Shown here: positions 17,760-60,623 of the stretch, in pieces
How positions within the stretch are numbered: position 1 is the first letter of the stretch
How the letters are laid out: each line of letters starts with the position of its first letter
Assembly (NCBI GenBank): GCA_964415025.1
Contig: CAYPXF010000006.1
Coordinates: forward strand, 58-64,057
From: an uncultured Gammaproteobacteria bacterium
GTDB taxonomy: Bacteria; Patescibacteriota; Patescibacteriia; UBA10025; JAHIVO01
Length of the DNA stretch: 64,000 nt
Reading direction: 5' to 3'
Made by a program: the position numbers and the translations under genes
The notes under the pieces: model-generated
Seen by the model: only the letters and a program-made list of their open reading frames with translations
What the model was told of the DNA's origin: nothing
The model's database searches: none

Positions 17760-18809
17760 ATGGCTTTGTTTAAACAGAAAAATGAGCGGCTGGTCGGCGT
17801 TGATTTTGGTTCAGCGACTATTAAACTAGTTGAAATCGAATACACTGATCCGTCCTATCGACTCGTTACCTACGGCATTGCCCAGCGTGACCATGATGCC
17901 TATAAAATCAATACTGTCCAGGGGCAGCGCCAGGTAGCCGCTCTGCTCCAGGAGGTTGTACAGGCCGCACGGGTCAACACGATTGATACCGTTACCGCCA
18001 TCCCGGCGCTGTCCTCTTTTAACACGGTCGTCACCCTGCCCCACATGCCGGATAAAGAACTGGGTTCAGCCGTGCAATGGGAGGCGAAAAAACTGGTGCC
18101 GCTGCCTATCGAAAAAATGAAAATTGACTGGCAGCGCATCCCGCCGGATCCACGGGATGATAAAGACCAAACAAAAGTAATTATTACCGCGGCTCCATTA
18201 GATATTATCAATGCCTACATTAATATTTTCCGTCAGGTAAACCTAAATCTCAAAAGCATAGAAACAGAAATTACCGCATTACGGCGGTCCCTTGTTCCGC
18301 ATGAGGGTGGAACTTTTTTACTGGTAGATATGGGAGCTACAAACACAAATCTGGTTCTGTTTAATCGGGGAATCCCCCGGGTGAACCGCAATGTTGAGGT
18401 CGGCGGCAAAACCATTACCCAGCGCATAGCCGAAAGCCTCAATGTGCAGCCAGAACGCGCTGAACAGTTTAAAAACGATATTGGTCTGCCTCTGCCGAAC
18501 CAGCAGCCACATCCAGCGGCAAAAGCTGCTGCCTTTCTCATTGATAACATGATTGTCCGTGAAATCAAACGGTTAAGCCGCACTATCCAGAGCACCGAGC
18601 AAACAAATATTAAAAAAGTGATTCTGATCGGCGGTTGTTCCCATCTGAAAAACCTGCCTAAATACATAGAGCATGCCTTATCACTGCCTGCTGACATCGG
18701 TAACCCCTGGGAACATATTATTTACCCGCGTGATTTGCAGCATGAGATGCTGCAAATCGGCCCCCAGCTGGCAGTGGCTGTAGGACTGGCCATGAAAACA
18801 AAAAAATAG
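17760..18809 (+). CDS. pilM: type IV pilus assembly protein PilM (actin-like ATPase fold)
   Basis: N-terminal LVGVDFGSATIKLVEIE and actin-like domains. It follows pilT by 11 nt. Confidence 0.75.
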   Translation: MALFKQKNERLVGVDFGSATIKLVEIEYTDPSYRLVTYGIAQRDHDAYKINTVQGQRQVAALLQEVVQAARVNTIDTVTAIPALSSFNTVVTLPHMPDKELGSAVQWEAKKLVPLPIEKMKIDWQRIPPDPRDDKDQTKVIITAAPLDIINAYINIFRQVNLNLKSIETEITALRRSLVPHEGGTFLLVDMGATNTNLVLFNRGIPRVNRNVEVGGKTITQRIAESLNVQPERAEQFKNDIGLPLPNQQPHPAAKAAAFLIDNMIVREIKRLSRTIQSTEQTNIKKVILIGGCSHLKNLPKYIEHALSLPADIGNPWEHIIYPRDLQHEMLQIGPQLAVAVGLAMKTKK

Positions 18810-18831
18810 CTCTGAACAACTGTTCAGAGCT
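18808..18831. terminator. 11-bp perfect hairpin (AGCTCTGAACA ac TGTTCAGAGCT) acting as a bidirectional intrinsic terminator between pilM (+) and a small minus-strand gene
   Basis: Seen directly. An A-run lies on the 5' side, which is a U-run for the minus-strand transcript. It sits directly after the pilM TAG and ~10 nt after the stop of the 18841..19035 minus ORF. Confidence 0.7.
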
Positions 18832-18840
18832 ATATGCATA

Positions 18841-49756: not shown

Positions 49757-50056
49757 TTATCTCTTTTTCGACTGGCGCGTAACCTTGTTCAAGTCATCCA
49801 GAATCGAATCCAGCGGCACGCCGTGCACTGCCGCGCCGGCCTCAAGCGTTTCATACGGTGAAATCATACAGCCAATACAGTGAAAACCATACTGTATTAA
49901 AACCTCGGCTGCTTCAGGATGTTTTTCTAAAATCTCACCCATGAGCATGTCTTTAGTGATCAGTCCGGCTGTCTTTTTGTCAGCCTTTTTCTTCGCGGCC
50001 GTGGTTGGTTTTTTCTTAGTAGCCGTGCGTGGCATAGTATATCGATTAATAAGCAT
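49757..50056 (-). CDS. DUF1858-type redox-active-disulfide small protein (hybrid-cluster-protein-associated family) with Lys-rich N-terminal tail
   Basis: ITKDMLMGEILEKHPEAAEVLIQYGFHCIGC...ETLEAGAAVHGVPLD matches the DUF1858 CxGC family. Confidence 0.65.
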   Translation of the reverse strand: MLINRYTMPRTATKKKPTTAAKKKADKKTAGLITKDMLMGEILEKHPEAAEVLIQYGFHCIGCMISPYETLEAGAAVHGVPLDSILDDLNKVTRQSKKR

Positions 50057-50174
50057 TTGTAGTGTAGCAATCAGCGTGCTGCTGTCAAGCCACTCCCGAT
50101 TACCAATTACGTGTTCTCAAAACGAAAAAAACATTTTTCATTCCTGGATTCCTCCCGCCAGTCCTCTTGTCTTA

Positions 50175-50203
50175 CTCTAATTGCAAATTATTTGCAATTA
50201 GAG
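50175..50203. promoter_or_regulatory. perfect 13-3-13 inverted repeat CTCTAATTGCAAA-TTA-TTTGCAATTAGAG overlapping the -35 of a sigma70-like promoter upstream of the Fur-family/znuACB operon; candidate Zur operator
   Basis: Seen directly. The reverse complement differs only in the central 3 nt. TTGCAA (50192-50197), a 17-nt spacer and TATACT (50215-50220) form the promoter. Confidence 0.6.
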
Positions 50204-50360
50204 TATATTCCTGCTATACTCCCGGTAGACAGTCGTCGGTTATATGTTGAAATAAAAAGTACAAAAAATTTCCGTGTACTAGGCTGCCATTTTCAGCCTT
50301 TTACCTTAAGCCTATAACTACGCTCCTTTCCTAAAGCATGAGACATGTAACATAGTTATT

Positions 50361-50738
50361 ATGAATCCAGTGGATACATTAAAAAAAGCCGGCTATAAAA
50401 TCACCCGTCCCCGCCGCGTGGTAATTAATATTCTCCTCCAAAACAAACATCCCCGGTCAGCGCGGGATATTCATACTGCGCTCAAGCGATCACGGATTAA
50501 TCTCACTTCAGTGTATCGTAGTCTGGAATTATTCGAATACCTGGCTATTGCTTTCAGTGAAGAACGCAATGGCGAACGGTACTACTACCTCGCCAAGGAG
50601 CAGCACCATCACATCACCTGTCGGAAATGCCAACGCACCGAGTGTCTTCCCTGCAAAATGGAATTTAAACCGCCGGCTGGATTTATAAATATCGAACATC
50701 AGCTCACCTTGACCGGGCTGTGTAAGAAATGTATTTAA
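50361..50738 (+). CDS. Fur-family transcriptional regulator, probably Zur (zinc uptake regulator)
   Basis: 125-aa Fur fold with HHH..C..C..C..C. It sits immediately upstream of znuA-znuC-znuB. Confidence 0.7.
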   Translation: MNPVDTLKKAGYKITRPRRVVINILLQNKHPRSARDIHTALKRSRINLTSVYRSLELFEYLAIAFSEERNGERYYYLAKEQHHHITCRKCQRTECLPCKMEFKPPAGFINIEHQLTLTGLCKKCI

Positions 50739-50757: not shown

Positions 50758-51759
50758 ATGAAATCAAAATCCATTATTACAATCCTTATAAGTGCCGCTT
50801 TCGTTGCCATCGTTGTTTTATTAGCCACTGGAGAATCAAAACGCTCTACGGATGAAAATAAAATTACCGTGGGTGCCACGATTTTTCCGGTTTATGATAT
50901 TGCCCGGAATATCGGCGGAGACAATGTCAATGTTATGCAAATTGTTCCCTCCGGCGCCAGTCCGCATACGTATGAAGTAACGCCGGACACCATCGAACAA
51001 TTAGCCCAGGCAAAAACAATATTTGCCATCGGCCACGGTGCTGATTCCTGGACAGACACTATCACCCAAAGTTTGGACAACATAAGGGTAATGATCGTGG
51101 ATAATAATATTACGTTGCTCCCTTTCAGCCAGCACCACCAACATGACCACGAACAAGAGGAACATGAACATGAGCATGAGCATGACCACGAACAAGAGGA
51201 ACATGAGCATGAGCATGACCACGAACAAGAGGAACATGAGCATGAAGGAGAGCATGATCCACACTATTGGCTCTCCGTTACCAACGCCCGACTCATTGCT
51301 GCTACCATAGCGAATGAGTTGGCCGCGCTCGACCCGGACCATAGCGCTGATTACCAGGAAAATCTGAACAGCTACCAAAGCAAGCTCGACACCCTGCTCA
51401 CCGCATCTCACGCAAAACTGGCTACGCTGGATAATAAAAATATAGTGGCCACGCATGGCGCCTGGCAGTATTTTTGCGATGAATTCGATCTGGAAACAGT
51501 CGGCGTGTTTCAGGCCTCGCCCGGCAGAGAGCCTACTCCCCAGGAACTGGCCGCACTGCAAGAAATTGTGGAAACGTACGATATTAGGGCATTATTCTCT
51601 GAACCACAGCTATCTGATGAAGTAGTACGGCCGTTCGCTGATGATACCGGCCTGCCAATATATGACCTCGATCCGCTGGGCGGTACCGACAATCGACAGT
51701 CGTATGTTGAACTGATACAATACAACGTGAACACGATTTATAACGCGCTGCGTCAATGA
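50758..51759 (+). CDS. znuA: zinc ABC transporter substrate-binding protein ZnuA with His/Glu-rich flexible loop
   Basis: Cluster-9 SBP fold. His-rich loop HHQHDHEQEEHEHEHEHDHEQEEHEHEHDHEQEEHEHEGEHDPH. Confidence 0.85.
   Translation: MKSKSIITILISAAFVAIVVLLATGESKRSTDENKITVGATIFPVYDIARNIGGDNVNVMQIVPSGASPHTYEVTPDTIEQLAQAKTIFAIGHGADSWTDTITQSLDNIRVMIVDNNITLLPFSQHHQHDHEQEEHEHEHEHDHEQEEHEHEHDHEQEEHEHEGEHDPHYWLSVTNARLIAATIANELAALDPDHSADYQENLNSYQSKLDTLLTASHAKLATLDNKNIVATHGAWQYFCDEFDLETVGVFQASPGREPTPQELAALQEIVETYDIRALFSEPQLSDEVVRPFADDTGLPIYDLDPLGGTDNRQSYVELIQYNVNTIYNALRQ
51142..51258 (+). repeat. three tandem ~33-39-nt repeats (CATGACCACGAACAAGAGGAACATGAGCATGAG) encoding the ZnuA His/Glu-rich loop
   Basis: Seen directly in the DNA. 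In frame within znuA. Confidence 0.8.
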
Positions 51760-52469
51760 ACGTCGCTTCTGTAAAAAACCTTACGGTCAAATACGGCCAT
51801 CACCTTATTCTGGACAATCTGTCTTTTACGATACTTGAAAAATCAATCACCGCTATCATCGGCCCGAACGGCTCGGGCAAGACCACACTGCTGAAAGCAA
51901 TGCTTGATTTGATCCCTTTTCAGGGCACAGTCCGCATCCTCGGCACCAGCCTGCGGCAGGCCAGATCAGACATCGGCTACGTCCCTCAGCGTTTCAGTTT
52001 TGATACCAGTTTCCCCATCACCGTAACAGAATATTTAACACTGGCTCAAAAAAAGAAAAATCAATCGGCTATAGACACGCAGCTCGAAGAAGTAGACATG
52101 CGTGACCGCAGCCAGCAGCTACTGGGCGAACTTTCAGGCGGCCAGCTGCAGCGCGTCTTGGTGGCTAAAGCGCTCCTCAATCAACCGCGTATTCTGTTTC
52201 TCGACGAACCGGCCGCCGGCATAGACATTGGCGGTGAACGCAATTTTTATGAATTGATCCAGCACCTCAATCAAACGCACGGCGTTACTATCCTGGTCGT
52301 ATCCCATGAAATAGATATTGTCTATAAATACGCCACCCAGGTCCTCTGTCTCAATAAACGCATGCTCTGCATGGGCAAGCCCCGTGAAATCTTGACAAGT
52401 GACACGCTGCGGCAACTATACGGCCAGGAAGCATCACTGTACCAACACGCTTATGACAAACATGATTGA
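51756..52469 (+). CDS. znuC: zinc ABC transporter ATP-binding protein ZnuC
   Basis: Walker A GPNGSGKTT, signature LSGGQLQRV. ATGA overlap with the znuA stop. Confidence 0.85.
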   Translation: MNVASVKNLTVKYGHHLILDNLSFTILEKSITAIIGPNGSGKTTLLKAMLDLIPFQGTVRILGTSLRQARSDIGYVPQRFSFDTSFPITVTEYLTLAQKKKNQSAIDTQLEEVDMRDRSQQLLGELSGGQLQRVLVAKALLNQPRILFLDEPAAGIDIGGERNFYELIQHLNQTHGVTILVVSHEIDIVYKYATQVLCLNKRMLCMGKPREILTSDTLRQLYGQEASLYQHAYDKHD

Positions 52470-53274
52470 GCTATTCCAATACCCGTTCATGCAGCGGGCG
52501 CTCATCGTCGGGATTATGCTCGGTGCACTGCTGGCGTATTTAGGGATTTTCGTGATCCTGAAACGTATGGCTTTTTTCGGTGATGGCGTTGCACATGCTT
52601 CACTGGCCGGCATCGCCATCGGCATCCTAGCAGGCATATCACCGCTCATAACAGCGCTGATCTATGGTATTGCCATCGCCCTGATTATGTACTGGACCGA
52701 GCGCAAAGGAAAAATATCCAGTGACGCGGTAATCGGTATTTTTTTTACGGCCAGTATGGCGCTCGGTGTCATTTTAATGAACTACCAGCAGGGATACCAG
52801 CCCGAACTTATCAGCTTTCTATTCGGAAATATTTTGGCCATACAATCGATCGATGTATATATCATCGGAATAATTGCTGCCATTGTGCTGGTATTTTTGA
52901 GCGTCAATTTCAAAAAAATATCACATCTGACGTTTGATCGTGAAAGCGCGTTCCTGGCCGGCATTAATATCACCTTGCTGGAAATCAGCATGTATATTGC
53001 TCTGGCGGTCGCTGTAGTGATTGGCGTCAAAATTTTAGGAATAATTCTCGTCAGCGCACTACTGATACTGCCCGCCTCCACCAGTAAATTAATTGCTGGT
53101 TCGTTTCGCGGTCTACTGGTTAACAGCATCATCGTCGGCGAGCTTTCGGTAATTATTGGTATTATTCTATCGTATACGATAAACTGGCCGACAGGAGCAA
53201 CCATCGTGCTTATCGGCACAGTATTTTTTATCATGACGCTGCTCCTGCGGATGGCGTTTAAAACTAATACGTAA
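52462..53274 (+). CDS. znuB: zinc ABC transporter permease ZnuB
   Basis: Start MIELFQ.. matches the E. coli ZnuB N-terminus MIELL. ATGATTGA start/stop overlap with znuC. The ORF-track N-extension was discarded. Confidence 0.8.
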   Translation: MIELFQYPFMQRALIVGIMLGALLAYLGIFVILKRMAFFGDGVAHASLAGIAIGILAGISPLITALIYGIAIALIMYWTERKGKISSDAVIGIFFTASMALGVILMNYQQGYQPELISFLFGNILAIQSIDVYIIGIIAAIVLVFLSVNFKKISHLTFDRESAFLAGINITLLEISMYIALAVAVVIGVKILGIILVSALLILPASTSKLIAGSFRGLLVNSIIVGELSVIIGIILSYTINWPTGATIVLIGTVFFIMTLLLRMAFKTNT

Positions 53275-53276
53275 TC

Positions 53277-53813
53277 ATGGCGCATAAGGAAAGTCCCCCG
53301 CCCTTGGTCCACCTTGTCACTGACGAGGAAGCCAAAGGAAAAGCTAAAGAACTGTTTGAACAAATGAAAGCCAAAACCGGCGCCGTCCCCAAATGGATGC
53401 GGGTCATGGCCAGCAATGATGATATCCTGGTTGGTTTTTTCACCCTGTTCAAAGCAACCATGGACGATCAGCCGGTCGAAGCAAAGCTAAAATGGAAAAT
53501 GGCCTACGCCGTGTCCGAAGCCAATAAATGCGAATTCTGCGTCAGCGTATCGAAGCAAATGCTGGCCAGCTTCGGCATGAGCGACCAGGAAATCGGCAGC
53601 CTGGACCAGACCGCCAATGAACGTGAAAAAACAGCCATGGAATATGCGGCCGCGTCGACCGAACACGCGTATAACATCGACCAAGAATTATTCAGCCGGG
53701 TCAAACAGTATTTCAGCGACAAGGAAATCGTCGAGCTGACCAGTGTTGTCGGATTATTCAACTTTATTAACCGATTTAATGATTCGCTGGGCGTACTGCC
53801 GGACATGAAATAA
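53277..53813 (+). CDS. carboxymuconolactone decarboxylase (CMD)/AhpD-like family protein
   Basis: AhpD-like helical fold with a CEFC motif. 178 aa. Confidence 0.6.
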   Translation: MAHKESPPPLVHLVTDEEAKGKAKELFEQMKAKTGAVPKWMRVMASNDDILVGFFTLFKATMDDQPVEAKLKWKMAYAVSEANKCEFCVSVSKQMLASFGMSDQEIGSLDQTANEREKTAMEYAAASTEHAYNIDQELFSRVKQYFSDKEIVELTSVVGLFNFINRFNDSLGVLPDMK

Positions 53814-53822
53814 TACCACCAT

Positions 53823-53860
53823 ACGTAAAACAGAGCACTGACCAGTGCTCTGTTTTACGT
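53823..53860. terminator. 18-bp perfect hairpin, bidirectional terminator between convergent genes
   Basis: Seen directly: ACGTAAAACAGAGCACTG ac CAGTGCTCTGTTTTACGT. Confidence 0.75.
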
Positions 53861-54991
53861 ATGCGGCGGGGATCCTACTGGCCGCGGTTTGGGACGACGG
53901 ATAAACCGCGCCGCCAGCCAGGTAGTGATGGGTACGGCCAGCACCAAACCAATACTGCCGGTCAGCGTCCGCACGATCTCCGTGGCTATTTGTTCATTAT
54001 TAATCACGTCCCCCAATGTAGTAAAGGGTGGCTGGTTTATGGAAAACAAAATAAGCAGCGGCAGCGCCGCGCCGGCATAAGCCAAAAACAGCGTATTGAC
54101 CATGGAACTCATGTGGGATACACCGACCCGCATGGCTTTTTTGAACACCTGACCGGTGGACAAGTCGGGGTTACTGGCTTTGAATTCCCTGACTAACACG
54201 GTCTGGGAAATAGCCACGTCGTCCAGCACACCGAGCGCCCCGATAATAATGCCGGCCAGCAGTAAACCCTGAACATTGAGATCGCCGACACCGAGACTGA
54301 TCAGATAAATCGCTTCATCACTAGCAAACCCGGTCAGCTTAGTCAGGCTTGTAAACCACAGTGAAAGTAGTCCTGTGATAATCAGGGAAATAAGAATCCC
54401 ACTAACAGCAATGGTGGAGCTGCGTTTAAATCCTTCAGTAAAATATATCGCCACCACCAGAATAGCAACAGCTCCGATAATACTGACCAGCAACGGCGGC
54501 CAGCCATCCAAAATACGAGGAATGATGAACCCCAGGATAACTAAAAAAGTCAAGACTAACACAAGCAGGGCTCGCAATCCCTTGAGACGTCCGACCACAA
54601 TCACTATTACCGCAAAGAGCAGCGCTAGCCATAGCAACGGCCCCTGTCGCACATAATCCACGACAAAGAAGATATCCTCGCCGTCGACGTTGATCGTGTG
54701 CGTTACCTGCACTTTATCACCAACACTATATTCAGGAACTGCCGTGACTTCATACTGTGTCCCGTCATAAATAATTTCCTTATTTTCCCAGGATCCCTCG
54801 AGTGGCCGCAATTTTAATTTTTGCTGCACCGCCGTATCGCCGGCTTCATTGGCTATTGTTTTTTGTTCCATGACCTCGACCACCCGTGCCGGAAATGTTT
54901 CACTGGCGGCAGTATTCTGCTGCTGAGCTGCTCCAATCTGGGGCAAACAAATAAGTCCGGTCAGTAATAGTATGAGGGCGCATTTCTTCAT
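53855..54991 (-). CDS. YibE/F-family polytopic membrane protein
   Basis: Signal peptide plus an extracytoplasmic N-domain, then ~8 TM helices with a YibE/F-like pattern. Confidence 0.55.
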   Translation of the reverse strand: MKKCALILLLTGLICLPQIGAAQQQNTAASETFPARVVEVMEQKTIANEAGDTAVQQKLKLRPLEGSWENKEIIYDGTQYEVTAVPEYSVGDKVQVTHTINVDGEDIFFVVDYVRQGPLLWLALLFAVIVIVVGRLKGLRALLVLVLTFLVILGFIIPRILDGWPPLLVSIIGAVAILVVAIYFTEGFKRSSTIAVSGILISLIITGLLSLWFTSLTKLTGFASDEAIYLISLGVGDLNVQGLLLAGIIIGALGVLDDVAISQTVLVREFKASNPDLSTGQVFKKAMRVGVSHMSSMVNTLFLAYAGAALPLLILFSINQPPFTTLGDVINNEQIATEIVRTLTGSIGLVLAVPITTWLAARFIRRPKPRPVGSPPHT

Positions 54992-55070
54992 AGCCTCAAT
55001 TGTATTCCGAAAATAATACTATGTCAAACCAAACCAGCCTGCTGTCCTGGCCGGTTTAAGTCGGGATATT

Positions 55071-55100
55071 TACTTAAACATTCTTAAGAATGTTTAAGTA
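55071..55100. promoter_or_regulatory. 30-nt perfect palindrome TACTTAAACATTCTT|AAGAATGTTTAAGTA ~80 nt upstream of the YibE/F-family gene
   Basis: Seen directly. Zero-spacer inverted repeat centred on CTTAAG. Confidence 0.45.
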
Positions 55101-55474
55101 AAACAGGCAACTTCTTGTCCCTTCAGGTCGCTAACGCGTTTATAGAGGTCGTTGGCAATTCCTCGTGTTCGGCAGCAGGGCCCTCACCATGTATATCACT
55201 TTCCGGCCAAACATACATAGGCTGATTAGCACAATTTATGAAAAGCTCCATCACAATGGACAATATAAACGAACGTGGCAATAGTCAAATCTGTCACTCC
55301 TAACCTGAAGAAAACTATACAGCAGTTCATCGCTCCGGACGTGGTCCGCCCCATCATTAATTTGGCAATAAGCAGATAAAATAATATTTCACCACTGCAG
55401 TCTGCCGGCGGATTTGTGTCCGGTGGATCTGCTATTGAATCACCGCGCTTCCTAAAACAAATCCTAATCCTTGA

Positions 55475-56014
55475 TTACTGTTTATTGGCTATACTGGCTC
55501 GAAATTGTTTCTGCCCGAGCCCAGCTCGTGCCATCTCAAATGCCCCGAAGAGAAGAAAACTATACACCAGATCTCCCGCGAGCATATTGCGCCAAAAAGG
55601 AATACCGAGGGTATACGCATACAACAGCCCCCCGACAGTTTTTTCATACCACGGTGAAAAAGCCCAGACAGCAGCGTTTGTCACTAGGAAAAAAAGCAAC
55701 GACGACCCTACAATGGTAAAAAATAGCGGTATTACCCCTCGCCATTTACTCCCTGCCCAGCTCACGCACCCGATCAGGACGATGGAGCCATAAACACTTA
55801 GCATGATCTTCCAGTCGTACCAGCCAATCAGTGCGTCTGATATGGCCAGCGCAGTGACAGGCAGTATGAGCGACCATCGCTTACCTATATAAACACTGCT
55901 GACTAAGGCAATCGCCACGAGCGGTGTTGCGTTCGGCATGTGCGGCAACAGGCGCCCGCCGACACCTAGTGCCAGGAGGGCAATAATAATTGGAAGAATA
56001 TTGTTCTTATGCAT
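55475..56014 (-). CDS. small polytopic membrane protein, putative ECF-type S-component-like vitamin (cobalamin?) transporter subunit
   Basis: 179 aa with 5-6 TM helices. Last gene of the nrdJ-pduO-DUF4430 operon. The family assignment is an inference. Confidence 0.4.
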   Translation of the reverse strand: MHKNNILPIIIALLALGVGGRLLPHMPNATPLVAIALVSSVYIGKRWSLILPVTALAISDALIGWYDWKIMLSVYGSIVLIGCVSWAGSKWRGVIPLFFTIVGSSLLFFLVTNAAVWAFSPWYEKTVGGLLYAYTLGIPFWRNMLAGDLVYSFLLFGAFEMARAGLGQKQFRASIANKQ

Positions 56015-56029
56015 ACATTTTTATACATC

Positions 56030-56464
56030 TCAAAATTCAGAACTAGTAAAATGCCACTCGACCACGTCGCCGTCGTGCAATTGGAGCGCATCGGCGCCAA
56101 CCTCCGGCATAACGCCGTTAACTGTATACTGCCAATACTTATCATCAGCACCGTTTGTTTTTCCGTTCATGCTCTCTACTAACACGCCGAGTCCTGGGTA
56201 CTCTTTGACAATAAGCTGTAGCCGCGATTCTGTATCGTCAAGCTGTGCCAATACTGCCAGCACCGTTTGTTCCGAAGCTATGGCGACTGCCCGCTCATTA
56301 AATACTCCTTCGACAGAAATAACCACGCTTGCCGCAGAGTCTGATACCTGGTCTGTTGCTTCTGTGACCACGTTATTATCCCGACCGGCGATGAAAAACA
56401 CGACAGCCAACGCGGCTATGACGACACCAGTACCGACAAATTTCCATATTCGTTTGCTATACAT
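56030..56464 (-). CDS. DUF4430-like (transcobalamin beta-domain-like) membrane-anchored protein
   Basis: Started at the internal ATG (MYSKRIWKF..). The ORF-track N-extension is not protein-like and overlaps pduO. One TM helix then a ~110-aa domain. Confidence 0.5.
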   Translation of the reverse strand: MYSKRIWKFVGTGVVIAALAVVFFIAGRDNNVVTEATDQVSDSAASVVISVEGVFNERAVAIASEQTVLAVLAQLDDTESRLQLIVKEYPGLGVLVESMNGKTNGADDKYWQYTVNGVMPEVGADALQLHDGDVVEWHFTSSEF

Positions 56465-56477
56465 AGTAATAAAATTA

Positions 56478-57014
56478 TTATTGATAAGACGGTGGTGATT
56501 CGTGTACGCCCTGGACCGCGACACTATATCGTGCCAAAACGTATAAAAAACTGGAAAGGCGGTTAAGATATGCAGCGGATTCTCGGGAAATATTCCGCTC
56601 GGACCGGATTCCCCAAACCGTACGTTCTGCACGGCGAGCCACTGCACGGGCATAATCACATAACGCGGAAAAGGAAGTGGCTCCCGGAATGACAAAAGAG
56701 GACGATTTTGGAATTAACTTTTCTACCCGGTCAATGTTTTTTTCTAACACGTCGATATGGATTTTGCCGATAGACTTTCCTGCGCCGGCAATTTCGGCCT
56801 GAATAATAAACAAGCATTCTTGTACCGCCCTAATCATGCGCGGGGTATCCATAGCTTTTTCATCCGGACCAGAACGCACACGGCATATGCCGAGCAGTGA
56901 ATTCAATTCATCAACATCACCGAGTGCTTTATAAATGGGGCTGTTTTTAGGTAGCCGCTCACTTGTCCCGAAAAGTCCTGTCGTTCCCTTATCTCCCCGA
57001 CGGGTATACAGCAT
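56478..57014 (-). CDS. PduO-type ATP:cob(I)alamin adenosyltransferase
   Basis: N-terminus MLYTRRGDKGTTGLFG..YKALGDVDELNSLLG is the MMAB/PduO signature. Its stop is 4 nt before the nrdJ start. Confidence 0.8.
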   Translation of the reverse strand: MLYTRRGDKGTTGLFGTSERLPKNSPIYKALGDVDELNSLLGICRVRSGPDEKAMDTPRMIRAVQECLFIIQAEIAGAGKSIGKIHIDVLEKNIDRVEKLIPKSSSFVIPGATSFSALCDYARAVARRAERTVWGIRSERNISRESAAYLNRLSSFLYVLARYSVAVQGVHESPPSYQ

Positions 57015-57018
57015 ATAA

Positions 57019-59319
57019 CTACTGTTGTGCCTCAACCGGGACGACCATGTCTATTTCACACGCGCCCCCGGCACAGGCCAGCTCTTTCTTTTGTTCTGTT
57101 TCGTCGGTATGCTCATACGTCACTAGCTTAGCATAATCAATCAAGGGAAATTTCGACATCATTTCATCATACGTTTTCTTATCTACTGCTTCGTACGGGG
57201 CTAAACGGTACACGTGGTCTGTCCGCGGTAAAAACGACAGTCCGCCGATAATGCTCCAGTTTTTCTGCAGCCAATCCACGACACTTATCCACTCATCCTC
57301 GCCAACCGAAATAGTCGCTGACGGATTATGTTCAGTATAATTCAGCTTTACTGTCTTCCAGTATTCCAGCTGTTCCAGCGCTGACAGGTCGTCTTTGTAA
57401 ACAGAACTGTCCGGCGCGGCTACCGGAAATTCCAGCACATAGGTGCTGGCGGTTTCCCGGGATTGCCCGACTTCGGGATAATAGGGCGCGCCCTGGTCTC
57501 GCAGCATCTTAAATAAAGAGTCGGTGGCGGAAATACGCACCCGCCTGATATAATACTTGGCATGGCGGGGATGAATCCCTGAAGAGCAATTAAATGTCTG
57601 CGAAACAGTCCCCGAAGGTTTGACGGCTGTGACTGACGTTGCCGGATTTACGCCAAAACGTTTGGCATACTCGACGTTCGACTGCACCGCGGTATCGCGC
57701 ATAGCGCGGAGCACGACCGGTTTTCTCGCCTCCGCTGAATCCCACTGGCCGGTAACCGAAACGCCGAGCAGACGTTCTGCCTCACAATTCTTTTCCCAAT
57801 CTTTGGATATATAATTAAAAGAAGTAAGCGTCGACTGATAAGTGCCGAGCAATGCGGCCAGTCGAGCCTTACGCACGAGGCTGTGCCGGGTATCCTGCGG
57901 ACGCGCGATGATTTCCGAAAGATTGCAGAACTGTTTTGACTGCAGAATGATCTCACCGCACGGATTAGTACCGATAGAACCTCGTACCGCGCCATCATTA
58001 TCGAGATAGCCTTTTTTTTGGAAATACTTGGCACGCCGTTCTGTCAACGTATGGCCAAGCGATCCACGGTTAAATATGCCGCGTTCTCCGGATCCGCTTT
58101 TCATCAGGGCGACCCACTCCTCAAGCAGCTCGGTATTGGACGGCTTTGTTTCGTACACGGCTGAATTATTGGCAACCGAGCGATGCGGTTCAGTCAGGAA
58201 AAATTGTCCTTTTTTAGCGTCACGCAGCTCCACATCATCCAAGTCTGACAAACTAATCATGGCCGTACGCCGTACGCCGCCGGAAACAACACACTCCCCG
58301 ATCTTGCAGATAATATCATGCACATCGATTGACCGGAGACGGCGCCCCTGACGGGCCATTATTTTTTCCCGGGCAAATTCCAGCAGCGACTGCAGCGGTT
58401 CGGACCCGGATGCTTTCCCGCCCATAGTCTTTAAACGTGCTCCGGCCGGACGAATTTTTGAATAATTAAATTCTATATCCTTCCCGGCGTACCATGTTTT
58501 CAGGCCGAGCGTCAGCGCGTCGCACCATCCTTCTTTGGAATCTGCTACCGTATGCGTGGACAATTTTTTCTTCTGCTGTATCTGTATCTGGGGCATTTGC
58601 TCAATATTTTGGCTCTCTACTGAATAGCCGACGCCGCATCCCTGCATGGACAGATACATGATTTCCGCAAAGTCCTCGAGTGATGCCGGAGCGATAAACG
58701 AGCAGTTATACGCACATGTATTACAGCGGCGAGCCGGCTCTCCCGCGAACTGCATGAGACGCATAGATGGCATGACTTCCTGTTTCAATATCGCCTCACG
58801 TACTTCATCGTATTCCGTATCGGTCAGTTTGGAACCCAGGTTTTCCCGCATGAACGATATATACCTATCCACTGTTTCAATCCACGTCTCGCGCCGTTGT
58901 TCTGCTTCGATCCAGCGGGCATAGGTGCGTAAATAAATAAATTCGCCGAGCGGGTTACCTTTAAAATATTTTTTGCTCTGCGCGGCGAGTGAGCGCACTT
59001 GTTCAGGAATCATGCCTTGTCTTTCGCGCTTCTGGTGCTGCTGCTCACGGTACAGGATATAAGCTCGGGCCACTTCGAAAAAGCCCTGTTCGGCAATCTT
59101 CTGCTCGACAATATCCTGGATGTTTTCTACGGTGGGAATGCTCGCCCTACCAAAACGCTCCTCTAGTACAGCGATAACGTCATCAGTCACTTGGCTGTAG
59201 AAACTATCAGCCACCGTAGTCTGGGCGGCAGTACAGGCCTTTTGGATAGCTCGCTCGATTCTGGTGCGGTCAAACATAACGACCGCGCCGCTACGTTTTT
59301 TGATCTTTTTTATTATCAT
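57019..59319 (-). CDS. nrdJ: class II (adenosylcobalamin-dependent) ribonucleotide reductase with N-terminal ATP-cone
   Basis: ATP-cone (VMFDRTRIERAI), class II core with NPCGEI and C-terminal redox Cys. 766 aa. Confidence 0.85.
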   Translation of the reverse strand: MIIKKIKKRSGAVVMFDRTRIERAIQKACTAAQTTVADSFYSQVTDDVIAVLEERFGRASIPTVENIQDIVEQKIAEQGFFEVARAYILYREQQHQKRERQGMIPEQVRSLAAQSKKYFKGNPLGEFIYLRTYARWIEAEQRRETWIETVDRYISFMRENLGSKLTDTEYDEVREAILKQEVMPSMRLMQFAGEPARRCNTCAYNCSFIAPASLEDFAEIMYLSMQGCGVGYSVESQNIEQMPQIQIQQKKKLSTHTVADSKEGWCDALTLGLKTWYAGKDIEFNYSKIRPAGARLKTMGGKASGSEPLQSLLEFAREKIMARQGRRLRSIDVHDIICKIGECVVSGGVRRTAMISLSDLDDVELRDAKKGQFFLTEPHRSVANNSAVYETKPSNTELLEEWVALMKSGSGERGIFNRGSLGHTLTERRAKYFQKKGYLDNDGAVRGSIGTNPCGEIILQSKQFCNLSEIIARPQDTRHSLVRKARLAALLGTYQSTLTSFNYISKDWEKNCEAERLLGVSVTGQWDSAEARKPVVLRAMRDTAVQSNVEYAKRFGVNPATSVTAVKPSGTVSQTFNCSSGIHPRHAKYYIRRVRISATDSLFKMLRDQGAPYYPEVGQSRETASTYVLEFPVAAPDSSVYKDDLSALEQLEYWKTVKLNYTEHNPSATISVGEDEWISVVDWLQKNWSIIGGLSFLPRTDHVYRLAPYEAVDKKTYDEMMSKFPLIDYAKLVTYEHTDETEQKKELACAGGACEIDMVVPVEAQQ

Positions 59320-59559
59320 ATGATTTTTAATATTATTTTATATTAGTGCGGCGACAAAAAAAGCGTTTCCGCCAGTATGCGGTACGATATACTAAAAACC
59401 CGCCAGCAAAAATTCACGTTATGAGACGCGGGTGCTGAAGAGTTTTACTATATTGATCTGCCGTATATCGCATACGAAATTAATTGTTTTTGTCTTCGTA
59501 TTGTATTTGGTTTAAATAAGGGAAGCAAGAGGCATGTTACGTACTTATCCTCGAATAAT

Positions 59560-59573
59560 TACAATATATTGTA
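59560..59573. promoter_or_regulatory. NrdR-box-like perfect palindrome TACAATATATTGTA in the nrdJ leader, with a second degenerate copy ~33 bp away overlapping the -10
   Basis: Seen directly. Matches the NrdR box core (acaCwAtATaTwGtgt). Minus-strand promoter TTGACT-16-TATAAT at ~59586-59613 gives a ~260-nt leader. Confidence 0.5.
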
Positions 59574-59585
59574 TGCCTATGTACA

Positions 59586-59613
59586 ATTATAGCACAACAT
59601 GTAGAAAAGTCAA
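59586..59613 (-). promoter_or_regulatory. near-consensus sigma70 promoter (TTGACT-16-TATAAT) for the nrdJ operon
   Basis: Seen directly on the minus strand. Confidence 0.55.
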
Positions 59614-59666
59614 CACGGGGTATTTTACGGAAAATACTCGTTTCTGTGGAAAAATGCTTTGCCCGG

Positions 59667-60623
59667 CTAATTATTCCGGGCCGGATAAAATTCCTCGCCA
59701 CTTAGCCCCAAATGCCGACGAATCTTCTCGGCATGCATGGCAATATTCTCTCCCATAAATGAAATGCGCGTTTTACCCTGGTACTGCTGCAGCGGCAGCC
59801 AGCTCCAGCGGCCGAAAACATAGTTGAGCAGCAATATTCCCTGATCAGTTCTGACCATGCCTTTTATCCGGTAAAAATCCCGCCGCGGCAAACCGGATAA
59901 CAGCGCTTCAAACGCTTGTTTGGCTAATGTCTGACCGGTTTTCAGTGTAAATATTTCCACCTCATGGTGATGGTGGCCAGTGTCCTTCCCCTGTTCTGCC
60001 AGCGTAATCTGCTCCTGGGCGGTAAACAGCTTGGTATCCAGGCCAAAAATCAGATCTGGGTTAACACTCCCCTTGTTTGTCCTGACTTTTGGCGTGTTAG
60101 GATTTAATTCATACACGTCGTCTAGCGCATCCTCCATGCGACGTTCATCCGTCACCAGCTCATGTTTGTTGATCAAGATAAGGTCAGTATACTGCGCCTG
60201 AAGCTCGGCTGTATAGCTCTTGTCCTTATACCCGTCGAAATTCAGCGCGTCAATCACCGTAACTATGCCGTCGAGCTTGAAGTGATCTGACAATTTTCTG
60301 ATTTCTATGGCAATCGGCGCGGGATACGCAGATCCAGATGTTTCGATGATTATCCGGTCTGGATTGTATTCAGTCCTGATTTGCTCGAGCGCATCCCCCA
60401 TCTTGCCGATCAGCACGCAGCACAGGCACCCGTTAATCATTTCCTTGGCCTGAATATTATTTTCTTTGGCCACCTGCGAATCTACCTCCACGTCGCCAAA
60501 TTCATTTTTCAGCCAGACCATGTTGTATTCCCGGGGCAATTGTTTAATCACGTTTAAAATAATAGTGGTCTTGCCACTGCCGAGATAACCGGTAAATACG
60601 GTGATGGGTATTCTTTTGTTCAT
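59667..60623 (-). CDS. COG0523-family G3E GTPase (CobW/YjiA/ZigA-like metallochaperone)
   Basis: Walker A GYLGSGKTT, CxCC metal motif (GCLCCV), and a His-rich stretch (GHHHHE) before the C-terminal domain. Confidence 0.8.
   Translation of the reverse strand: MNKRIPITVFTGYLGSGKTTIILNVIKQLPREYNMVWLKNEFGDVEVDSQVAKENNIQAKEMINGCLCCVLIGKMGDALEQIRTEYNPDRIIIETSGSAYPAPIAIEIRKLSDHFKLDGIVTVIDALNFDGYKDKSYTAELQAQYTDLILINKHELVTDERRMEDALDDVYELNPNTPKVRTNKGSVNPDLIFGLDTKLFTAQEQITLAEQGKDTGHHHHEVEIFTLKTGQTLAKQAFEALLSGLPRRDFYRIKGMVRTDQGILLLNYVFGRWSWLPLQQYQGKTRISFMGENIAMHAEKIRRHLGLSGEEFYPARNN

Follow-up and report, generated by a model that had tools for sequence, protein, structure and literature searches.

Upstream of a Fur-family regulator gene and a znuACB importer operon in the 64,000-nucleotide stretch of DNA analysed here (the window) lies a long inverted repeat, and the locus raises the question of whether this repeat is an operator and, if so, which protein and which metal it answers to. 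The first-pass annotation of this DNA had reported a 29-bp sequence, CTCTAATTGCAAATTATTTGCAATTAGAG, at 50175-50203, and it was found there exactly. The 13-3-13 architecture assigned to it had to be revised, as the arrangement inside 50175-50203 is 14-1-14 and extends outward to a perfect 16-1-16 inverted repeat of 33 bp, TACTCTAATTGCAAAT-T-ATTTGCAATTAGAGTA, at 50173-50205 (no strand assigned), which is the candidate operator considered below. That the palindrome exceeds chance, as also proposed earlier, was borne out by first-order Markov simulations of the window scored for perfect inverted repeats with a spacer of at most 5 nt: the longest repeat in each of 40 simulations had arms of 8-12 nt, compared with 16 nt in the real palindrome. 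Its 23-mer core is single-copy in the window even at 3 mismatches and gave 0 matches in 100 shuffles. Its rank as the strongest operator candidate in the window could not be upheld, given other long palindromes, 21-2-21 at 53820-53863 and 17-0-17 at 55069-55102. At the centre of the repeat, a core 7-1-7 box read directly from the sequence, TGCAAAT-T-ATTTGCA (50182-50196, no strand), matches the Fur-family operator frame T-x-x-x-A-A-T N A-T-T-x-x-x-A and is enclosed in the 21-mer AATTGCAAAT-N-ATTTGCAATT at 50179-50199. Elsewhere in the window, a 12-3-12 inverted repeat, GATTTGCAGCAT-GAG-ATGCTGCAAATC, at 18732-18758, just before a hairpin at 18806-18833, carries the box heptamers in everted order (ATTTGCA...TGCAAAT), probably by chance.

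The position of the palindrome suggests how it could act. A consensus scan confirmed the earlier proposal that the right-arm TTGCAA is the -35 of a TTGCAA-17-TATACT promoter before the Fur-family gene and znuACB: the -35 hexamer is at 50192-50197 and the extended -10, TGcTATACT, at 50212-50220 (TG at 50212-50213, TATACT at 50215-50220), both on the + strand, so that the box overlaps the predicted core promoter of the gene it would regulate. This promoter, TTGCAA-17-TGcTATACT, reads into five + strand genes, beginning with the Fur-family regulator that adjoins the box (50361-50738, 125 aa, Pfam FUR 2e-15; a 'mini-Zur') and continuing with ZnuA, a zinc-type substrate-binding protein recognized by its ligand motifs and His/Glu-rich loop (50758-51759), the ABC ATPase ZnuC (51756-52469), the ABC-3 permease ZnuB (52399-53274, start codon uncertain) and, as last gene of the operon, a CMD/AhpD-like (YciW-related) gene (53277-53813). 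The operon ends at a 21-2-21 perfect hairpin, CATACGTAAAACAGAGCACTG-AC-CAGTGCTCTGTTTTACGTATG (53820-53863, no strand), which overlaps the stop codon of a convergent gene for a YibE_F membrane protein (53855-54991, - strand) and is a bidirectional terminator serving both the AhpD-like gene and the YibE_F gene. With a 7-1-7 core of Fur-family type, and a Fur-family gene first in the operon, autoregulation through the box is the natural reading; and because the right-arm TTGCAA is the -35, a bound repressor would block RNA polymerase.

Other long palindromes do occur in the window, and the repeat might accordingly be imagined as the site of an unrelated transcription factor encoded elsewhere, or as a structural element (a hairpin, terminator or recombination site). 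However, it lies upstream of both transcription starts and is therefore not expected in RNA, its 1-nt loop, AT-rich stem and absence of a T tract are unlike a terminator, no repeat copies or mobile-element genes are nearby, and the tight linkage of the box to Fur-family genes across phyla, described below, argues against an unrelated factor. A role of this kind is thus considered extremely improbable, and the operator reading is retained in what follows.

Comparison with close relatives gave the same picture. A word-based protein search recovered three relatives of the regulator, with 72, 68 and 55% identity, and the box is conserved upstream of every recovered relative. In the loci whose regulators are 68-72% identical to that of the window (L001/L002 and L003), CTAATTGCAAAT-C-ATTTGCAATTA is invariant and the 21-mer differs from the window at the centre base only. 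The -10 block GCTATACT, 17 nt after TTGCAA, is likewise invariant in the window, L001 and L003, and on the regulator side of the three-way alignment invariance is concentrated in the box and GCTATACT, the remainder of the spacer there having diverged; this is a clear phylogenetic footprint of the box and -10. The spacing of 17 nt between TTGCAA and the -10 is found in L001, L003, L066 and L076 as well. In the more distant locus, L004 (regulator 55% identical), the box reads TTGCAAAC-G-GTTTGCAA, as it does in L005; the inner pair is changed on both arms, and this compensatory change keeps the symmetry of the palindrome. There the left arm acts as the -35, 17 nt from TGaTAAACT, with the ATG 6 nt further on. 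The operator thus remains on the core promoter despite a shift of the promoter by one arm, because TTGCAA is self-complementary and fits the -35 consensus at 4/6 positions. Each of the 15 Patescibacteria (CPR)-type loci examined, which together span about 105 kb, carried exactly one box, without exception within the promoter region of its fur-like operon.

The start codon of the regulator gene is separated from the -10 by a pyrimidine-rich leader of about 140 nt (50221-50360, + strand; 3349-3511 in L001 and 628-774 in L003), confined to the window, L001 and L003 and containing a conserved block, CCTT-TAACCTTA. L004, L066 and L076 have no such leader: about 6-11 nt separate the -10 from the ATG, which makes their regulator mRNAs leaderless or nearly so. 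A regulatory RNA in the leader was considered and rejected: Rfam gave no match, the fold z-score was -0.77, and the consensus fold of the three sequences reached -5 kcal/mol with a positive covariation term. L003 lacks the terminator-like hairpin at 50281-50299 through a deletion, and a small open reading frame was likewise rejected, because the lengths of the indels are not divisible by three. With its 140 nt, the leader could accommodate a second, so far unrecognized promoter closer to the ATG.

On the other side of the box, the divergent gene was confirmed to encode a DUF1858/TIGR03980 redox-disulfide domain protein (49757-50035, - strand), as annotated earlier; the ATG at 50035, which lines up with the start codons of L001 and L003, is the most probable start of the gene. 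The shared intergenic region, the DUF1858 adjacency kept in the window, L001/L002 and L003, and the ability of Fur-family proteins to act from upstream sites might together suggest a bidirectional operator, and co-regulation of the DUF1858 gene had in fact been proposed. But the consensus scan revealed that this gene has its own promoter, TTGACA-16-TACACT with a TG (50061-50088, - strand), both hexamers of which are conserved in L001 and L003. The box stands upstream of the DUF1858 -35 and so would not block RNA polymerase there, and its distance shifts by about 62 nt, from about 20 nt in L001 and L003 to about 85 nt in the window, the larger distance being due to a 62-nt insertion. Moreover, beyond these relatives, no CPR locus that carries the box has DUF1858 as a neighbour. 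Control of the DUF1858 gene by the box is therefore quite unlikely; the gene is probably not part of this regulatory unit, and the proposal of co-regulation found no support other than the adjacency itself.

Further members of a regulon were sought across the window. Counts of sites resembling the 21-mer (at most 6 mismatches) or the 15-mer core (at most 3) were equal to the Markov background, which provides no second box in the 64 kb, and none of the classic Zur targets in the window (ribosomal-protein paralogues, COG0523) carries the motif. A half-site-like string, TTTACAATT, noted earlier upstream of the COG0523 gene does exist, but it has no significant match to the box, is absent from the list of sites with at most 6/20 mismatches, and is noise. 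As far as the 64-kb window and 15 CPR-type loci reach, the regulon is a local, autoregulated operon. The COG0523 gene itself is the first of a minus-strand cluster at 55475-60623 that also encodes a class II (B12-dependent) ribonucleotide reductase with an ATP-cone, a PduO-type cobalamin adenosyltransferase, DUF4430 and DUF6580. Its place at the head of a B12-related cluster points to cobalamin rather than zinc, and the cluster looks like a module for cobalamin salvage and use. In L001 the same cluster, without COG0523, directly follows znuB, and this 9.9-kb locus ends inside the ribonucleotide reductase gene.

Several observations concern the YibE/F family. A YibE/F-family gene neighbours the fur-like/ZIP or fur-like/znu cluster in the window and in 7 of about 12 CPR-type loci (L041, L050, L066, L076, L086, L089, L098); in two of these, L041 and L098, it and the regulator gene are transcribed divergently from either side of a TTGCAAAT box. 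This suggests a role for YibE/F in zinc or other metal homeostasis. In the window, the YibE_F gene has a strong minus-strand promoter, TTGACA-17-TACAAT, 7 nt before its ATG at 54991, and about 35 nt upstream of the -35 is the perfect 17-0-17 palindrome, TTTACTTAAACATTCTT followed directly by AAGAATGTTTAAGTAAA, at 55069-55102. This palindrome shows no sequence relationship to the TTGCAAAT box and is a possible second operator; a metagenome scan with its 20-nt core returned 7 unrelated matches, consistent with chance.

The regulator protein was examined for the identity of the sensed metal. It carries a HHH motif at residues 82-84 and six cysteines, C87, C90, C95, C98, C121 and C124. Invariant among the four closest members are H38, E67, HHH82-84, H113, C87/C90 and C121/C124, the two cysteine pairs forming the structural Cys4 site of the family, together with an extra C95-x-x-C98. 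The clade is small, with about 45 clusters (50% identity) below 1e-17, mostly of 118-135 aa. Aligned with M. tuberculosis Zur (2o03), the protein has Ala at the position of Cys76 and no equivalent of Asp62, but retains the HHH motif; the canonical set of Zur sensing-site ligands (Asp, Cys, His, His) is thus not present in it. A metal-sensing site involving C95 and C98 may be hypothesized. Assignment of the metal from the regulator protein was attempted and set aside: an NCBIfam search reached no equivalog cut-off, and sequence and fold searches of the PDB, in which Fur, Zur and PerR structures ranked best, did not discriminate between Fur, Zur, PerR and Mur, R. leguminosarum Mur (5fd5) appearing at 3.7e-6. 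In the AlphaFold model the DNA-binding winged-helix domain is confident, but the C-terminal domain has pLDDT values of 52-67, and therefore the geometry of the metal site could not be read from the model.

The transporter is more telling. In ZnuA, each of the three ligand positions is a His (SPHTY, DPHYW, THGAW), whereas manganese-type proteins carry Glu at the third (SEGAF), and its fourth position lacks Asp (EPQLS, compared with ESSVD in PsaA). It also contains a His/Glu-rich loop of 40 residues, 15 of them His, and its best solved match is Synechocystis ZnuA (1pq4, 1.9e-36). L001 and L089 encode ZnuA proteins of this type too. In sister loci a ZIP transporter follows the regulator instead (L012, L041, L065, L066, L071, L076 and L098; the family was confirmed by Pfam for L012, L041, L066 and L071). 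A zinc-uptake target such as is expected in a Zur regulon is thereby present, in the form of a His-His-His ZnuA with a His-rich loop and 1pq4 as closest structure, and of ZIP in the sister loci. From the three His ligands and the His-rich loop, the regulator is most likely zinc-responsive (Zur-like), and if the box is indeed the regulator's operator, zinc is the best call for the operon and a rather likely one. The loop is itself encoded by tandem direct repeats of 12-21 nt at 51130-51257 (HEQEEHEHEHEHD...), and as its length and sequence differ between the window, L001 and L089, it appears to be fast-changing by repeat expansion and contraction.

The first-pass annotation had described the palindrome as probably the Zur box of this lineage. 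"Zur box" stands as the best reading, with a zinc-type transporter and a box conserved upstream of the recovered regulator relatives; "of this lineage" does not, since the identical 21-mer is found beside metal genes in many phyla. When a one-genome-per-species collection was scanned for AATTGCAAAYNRTTTGCAATT, the exact 21-mer was present in at least 119 genomes, compared with a chance expectation, by our own calculation, of about 2 at uniform base composition and about 20 at 65% A+T. The matches listed span Verrucomicrobia (many), Rhizobiales, Nostocales, Clostridia, Enterococcus, Liquorilactobacillus, Bacteroidetes, Patescibacteria/Paceibacterota, Nitrospira, Neisseria and others. Among the matches listed, 139 open reading frames starting at most 200 nt from the motif and reading away from it were taken for Pfam analysis, and these included FUR (27), Zip (23), ZnuA (11), multicopper oxidase (9), Nramp (5), YibE_F (2) and CobW (2). 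Of 118 loci analysed among the same listed matches, 41 have a Fur-family gene within 2.5 kb of the 21-mer and 79 have a Fur, ZIP, ZnuA, ZnuB, Nramp, COG0523, YibE_F or multicopper-oxidase gene within that distance. Occurrence in at least 119 genomes, together with these neighbours, indicates that the box is a widespread metal-regulon operator and not a peculiarity of one lineage. It precedes ZnuA genes with His-rich loops in one Verrucomicrobia and one Methylomirabilota genome.

Some of these loci have features of their own. In Nostocales and one Chroococcales (L034, L037, L051, L085, L091, L100, L104, L106 and L111), the 21-mer lies about 30 nt upstream of a gene whose 341-aa product has a Tat-type signal and matches multicopper-oxidase domains, and L106 and L111 have a second Fur/Zur-like box (AATTGACAATAATT...) 40 nt from the 21-mer. 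A Fur paralogue of 125-131 aa adjoins TTGCAAAT-type boxes in Enterococcus sp. DIV0876 (L072), E. avium (L123) and Liquorilactobacillus (L011), with two such boxes per intergenic region in L011 and L072; in L072 and L123 the paralogue is divergent from a COG0523 gene of 357-363 aa. The published Zur site of E. faecalis yciC is Bacillus-type, and the Enterococcus TTGCAAAT box therefore belongs to a different regulator and was not counted as evidence for zinc; the Fur paralogue and COG0523 appear to form a separate regulator/COG0523 module. Two metagenome-assembled contigs labelled 'uncultured Gammaproteobacteria bacterium', L024 and L041 (CAZJUO010000013 and CAZUKA010000002), have regulators and neighbourhoods closest to those of Patescibacteria/Paceibacter metagenome-assembled genomes, and these labels look doubtful.

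How the box relates to operators already described was then a matter of comparing sequence as well as architecture. The B. subtilis Zur box has a 7-1-7 or 9-1-9 arrangement, TCGTAAT-N-ATTACGA. Autoregulated zur-znuABC operons and Zur boxes (B. subtilis, S. coelicolor, E. coli) likewise link a Fur-family repressor gene to a zinc ABC importer, and the window shares with them a palindromic operator over the -35, 7-1-7 symmetry and the common frame T...AAT-N-ATT...A. Positions +/-4 to +/-6, however, are ACG in the window box (TGCAAAT) and TGC in the Bacillus Zur box (TCGTAAT); the specificity positions differ from both Bacillus and gammaproteobacterial Zur, in agreement with the earlier suggestion that the box departs from these consensus sequences. 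The window regulator also differs from canonical Zur in being shorter (125 aa), in lacking the Asp/Cys sensing ligands and in having the extra conserved CxxC (C95, C98), and, unlike Zur regulons, the 64-kb window yielded no further members. The Fur box, TGATAAT-N-ATTATCA, and the PerR box, TTATAAT-N-ATTATAA, are both 7-1-7 (forms quoted in PMC12748984, PMC1698941) and have in common with the window box their architecture, protein family and use as part of a core promoter, but they differ at the specificity positions, and the window operon contains no iron- or peroxide-related gene. A literature search for the literal box sequence gave no relevant match.

The closest known DNA sequence is that of the manganese regulator Mur. 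Rodionov et al. (2006) reported a palindrome of 19 bp that precedes sitABCD, mntH and a Brucella irr paralogue (PMC1698941), and footprints of Mur on the promoters of fur4 and mntH covered a Mur-responsive sequence (MRS) described as 7-1-7 (PMC12748984). In our scan, AATTGCAAA(T/C)-N-(A/G)TTTGCAATT was found in Brucella, Phyllobacterium, Aliihoeflea and Aquamicrobium. It stands immediately before Nramp (mntH) genes in the first two, and in Brucella also upstream of an Irr-type/fur4-type paralogue (NCBIfam IrrA, 4e-51); in the last two it lies between the gene for a regulator that, among solved structures, is most similar to R. leguminosarum Mur (5fd5, 6.5e-42) and that for a substrate-binding protein whose SEGAF motif is of the manganese type. 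From their positions we infer that these Rhizobiales sites are the published Mur box, the logo of which is given in the papers only as a figure; with that reading, the Mur box/MRS of Rhizobiales and Rhodobacterales is the same DNA as the window box, the same 21-mer being present at mntH and mur-sitA.

It must therefore be asked whether the same operator and repressor might respond to manganese or iron, the regulator being Mur- or Fur-like. The identity of the 21-mer with sites upstream of mntH in Brucella and Phyllobacterium, its place between a Mur orthologue and a manganese-type SitA in Aliihoeflea and Aquamicrobium, the description of the Mur box as a 19-bp palindrome with 7-1-7 symmetry (PMC1698941; PMC12748984), and a window regulator without the Asp/Cys ligands of the Zur sensing site would all be accommodated by such an effector. 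The proteins of the window nevertheless point elsewhere. The target is a zinc-type ZnuABC and not MntH/SitABCD controlled through a Mur orthologue: ZnuA is a textbook zinc-binding type in which the ligands are three His, none is Glu or Asp, and the loop is rich in His; the relatives carry ZIP or zinc-type ZnuA. The regulator has the Cys4 site, its conserved C95 and C98 are absent from Mur, and it matches Mur (5fd5) at 3.7e-6, compared with 6.5e-42 for the regulator of the Rhizobiales loci; and the same box stands before the His-rich-loop ZnuA genes of Verrucomicrobia and Methylomirabilota. Manganese or iron as effector is thus regarded as unlikely, and zinc remains the preferred assignment.

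Taken together, the palindrome is very probably a binding site of the Fur-family protein encoded next to it, and probably the operator of a Zur-like Fur-family repressor, placed on the -35 of the repressor's own zinc-uptake operon, with binding, repression and the zinc effector proposed by analogy with characterized members of the family. When zinc is sufficient, a metal-loaded dimer would bind the 7-1-7 core TGCAAAT-N-ATTTGCA, as Zur, Fur and Mur do at their own sites, and the longer arms may accommodate a second dimer or offer additional contacts. Repression would silence the regulator gene, znuA, znuC, znuB and the AhpD-like gene together; when zinc is scarce, the apo-protein would leave the DNA and relieve repression of the operon. 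The regulator would thus act in a negative autoregulatory loop, as is expected of Zur systems (PMC6103462).

In summary, a Fur-family repressor that sits over the -35 of the uptake operon to which its gene belongs is a known, textbook design. Less ordinary are the invariance of a 21-bp box across phyla, its identity with the manganese Mur box (as judged from position), and a minimal regulator with non-canonical ligands. For this uncultured, reduced-genome lineage, probably one of the Patescibacteria/CPR, the analysis provides a predicted operator and regulator pair for metal homeostasis. The box known as the Rhizobiales Mur box stands before zinc-type importers in several other phyla, and its presence at both zinc- and manganese-type importers is a warning against assigning the metal from box sequence alone in regulon annotation. 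More tentatively, and with somewhat less than even confidence, TGCAAAT-N-ATTTGCA may be an ancient cross-phylum operator class in which the site has stayed near-invariant while the sensed metal has changed, and in which the CPR mini-Zur senses its metal through a non-canonical site at C95/C98. If so, CPR/Patescibacteria, Verrucomicrobia and Methylomirabilota would sense zinc through this box and Rhizobiales would sense manganese, and the CPR 'mini-Zur' of about 125 aa would use its extra CxxC (C95, C98) in place of the Asp/Cys ligands.
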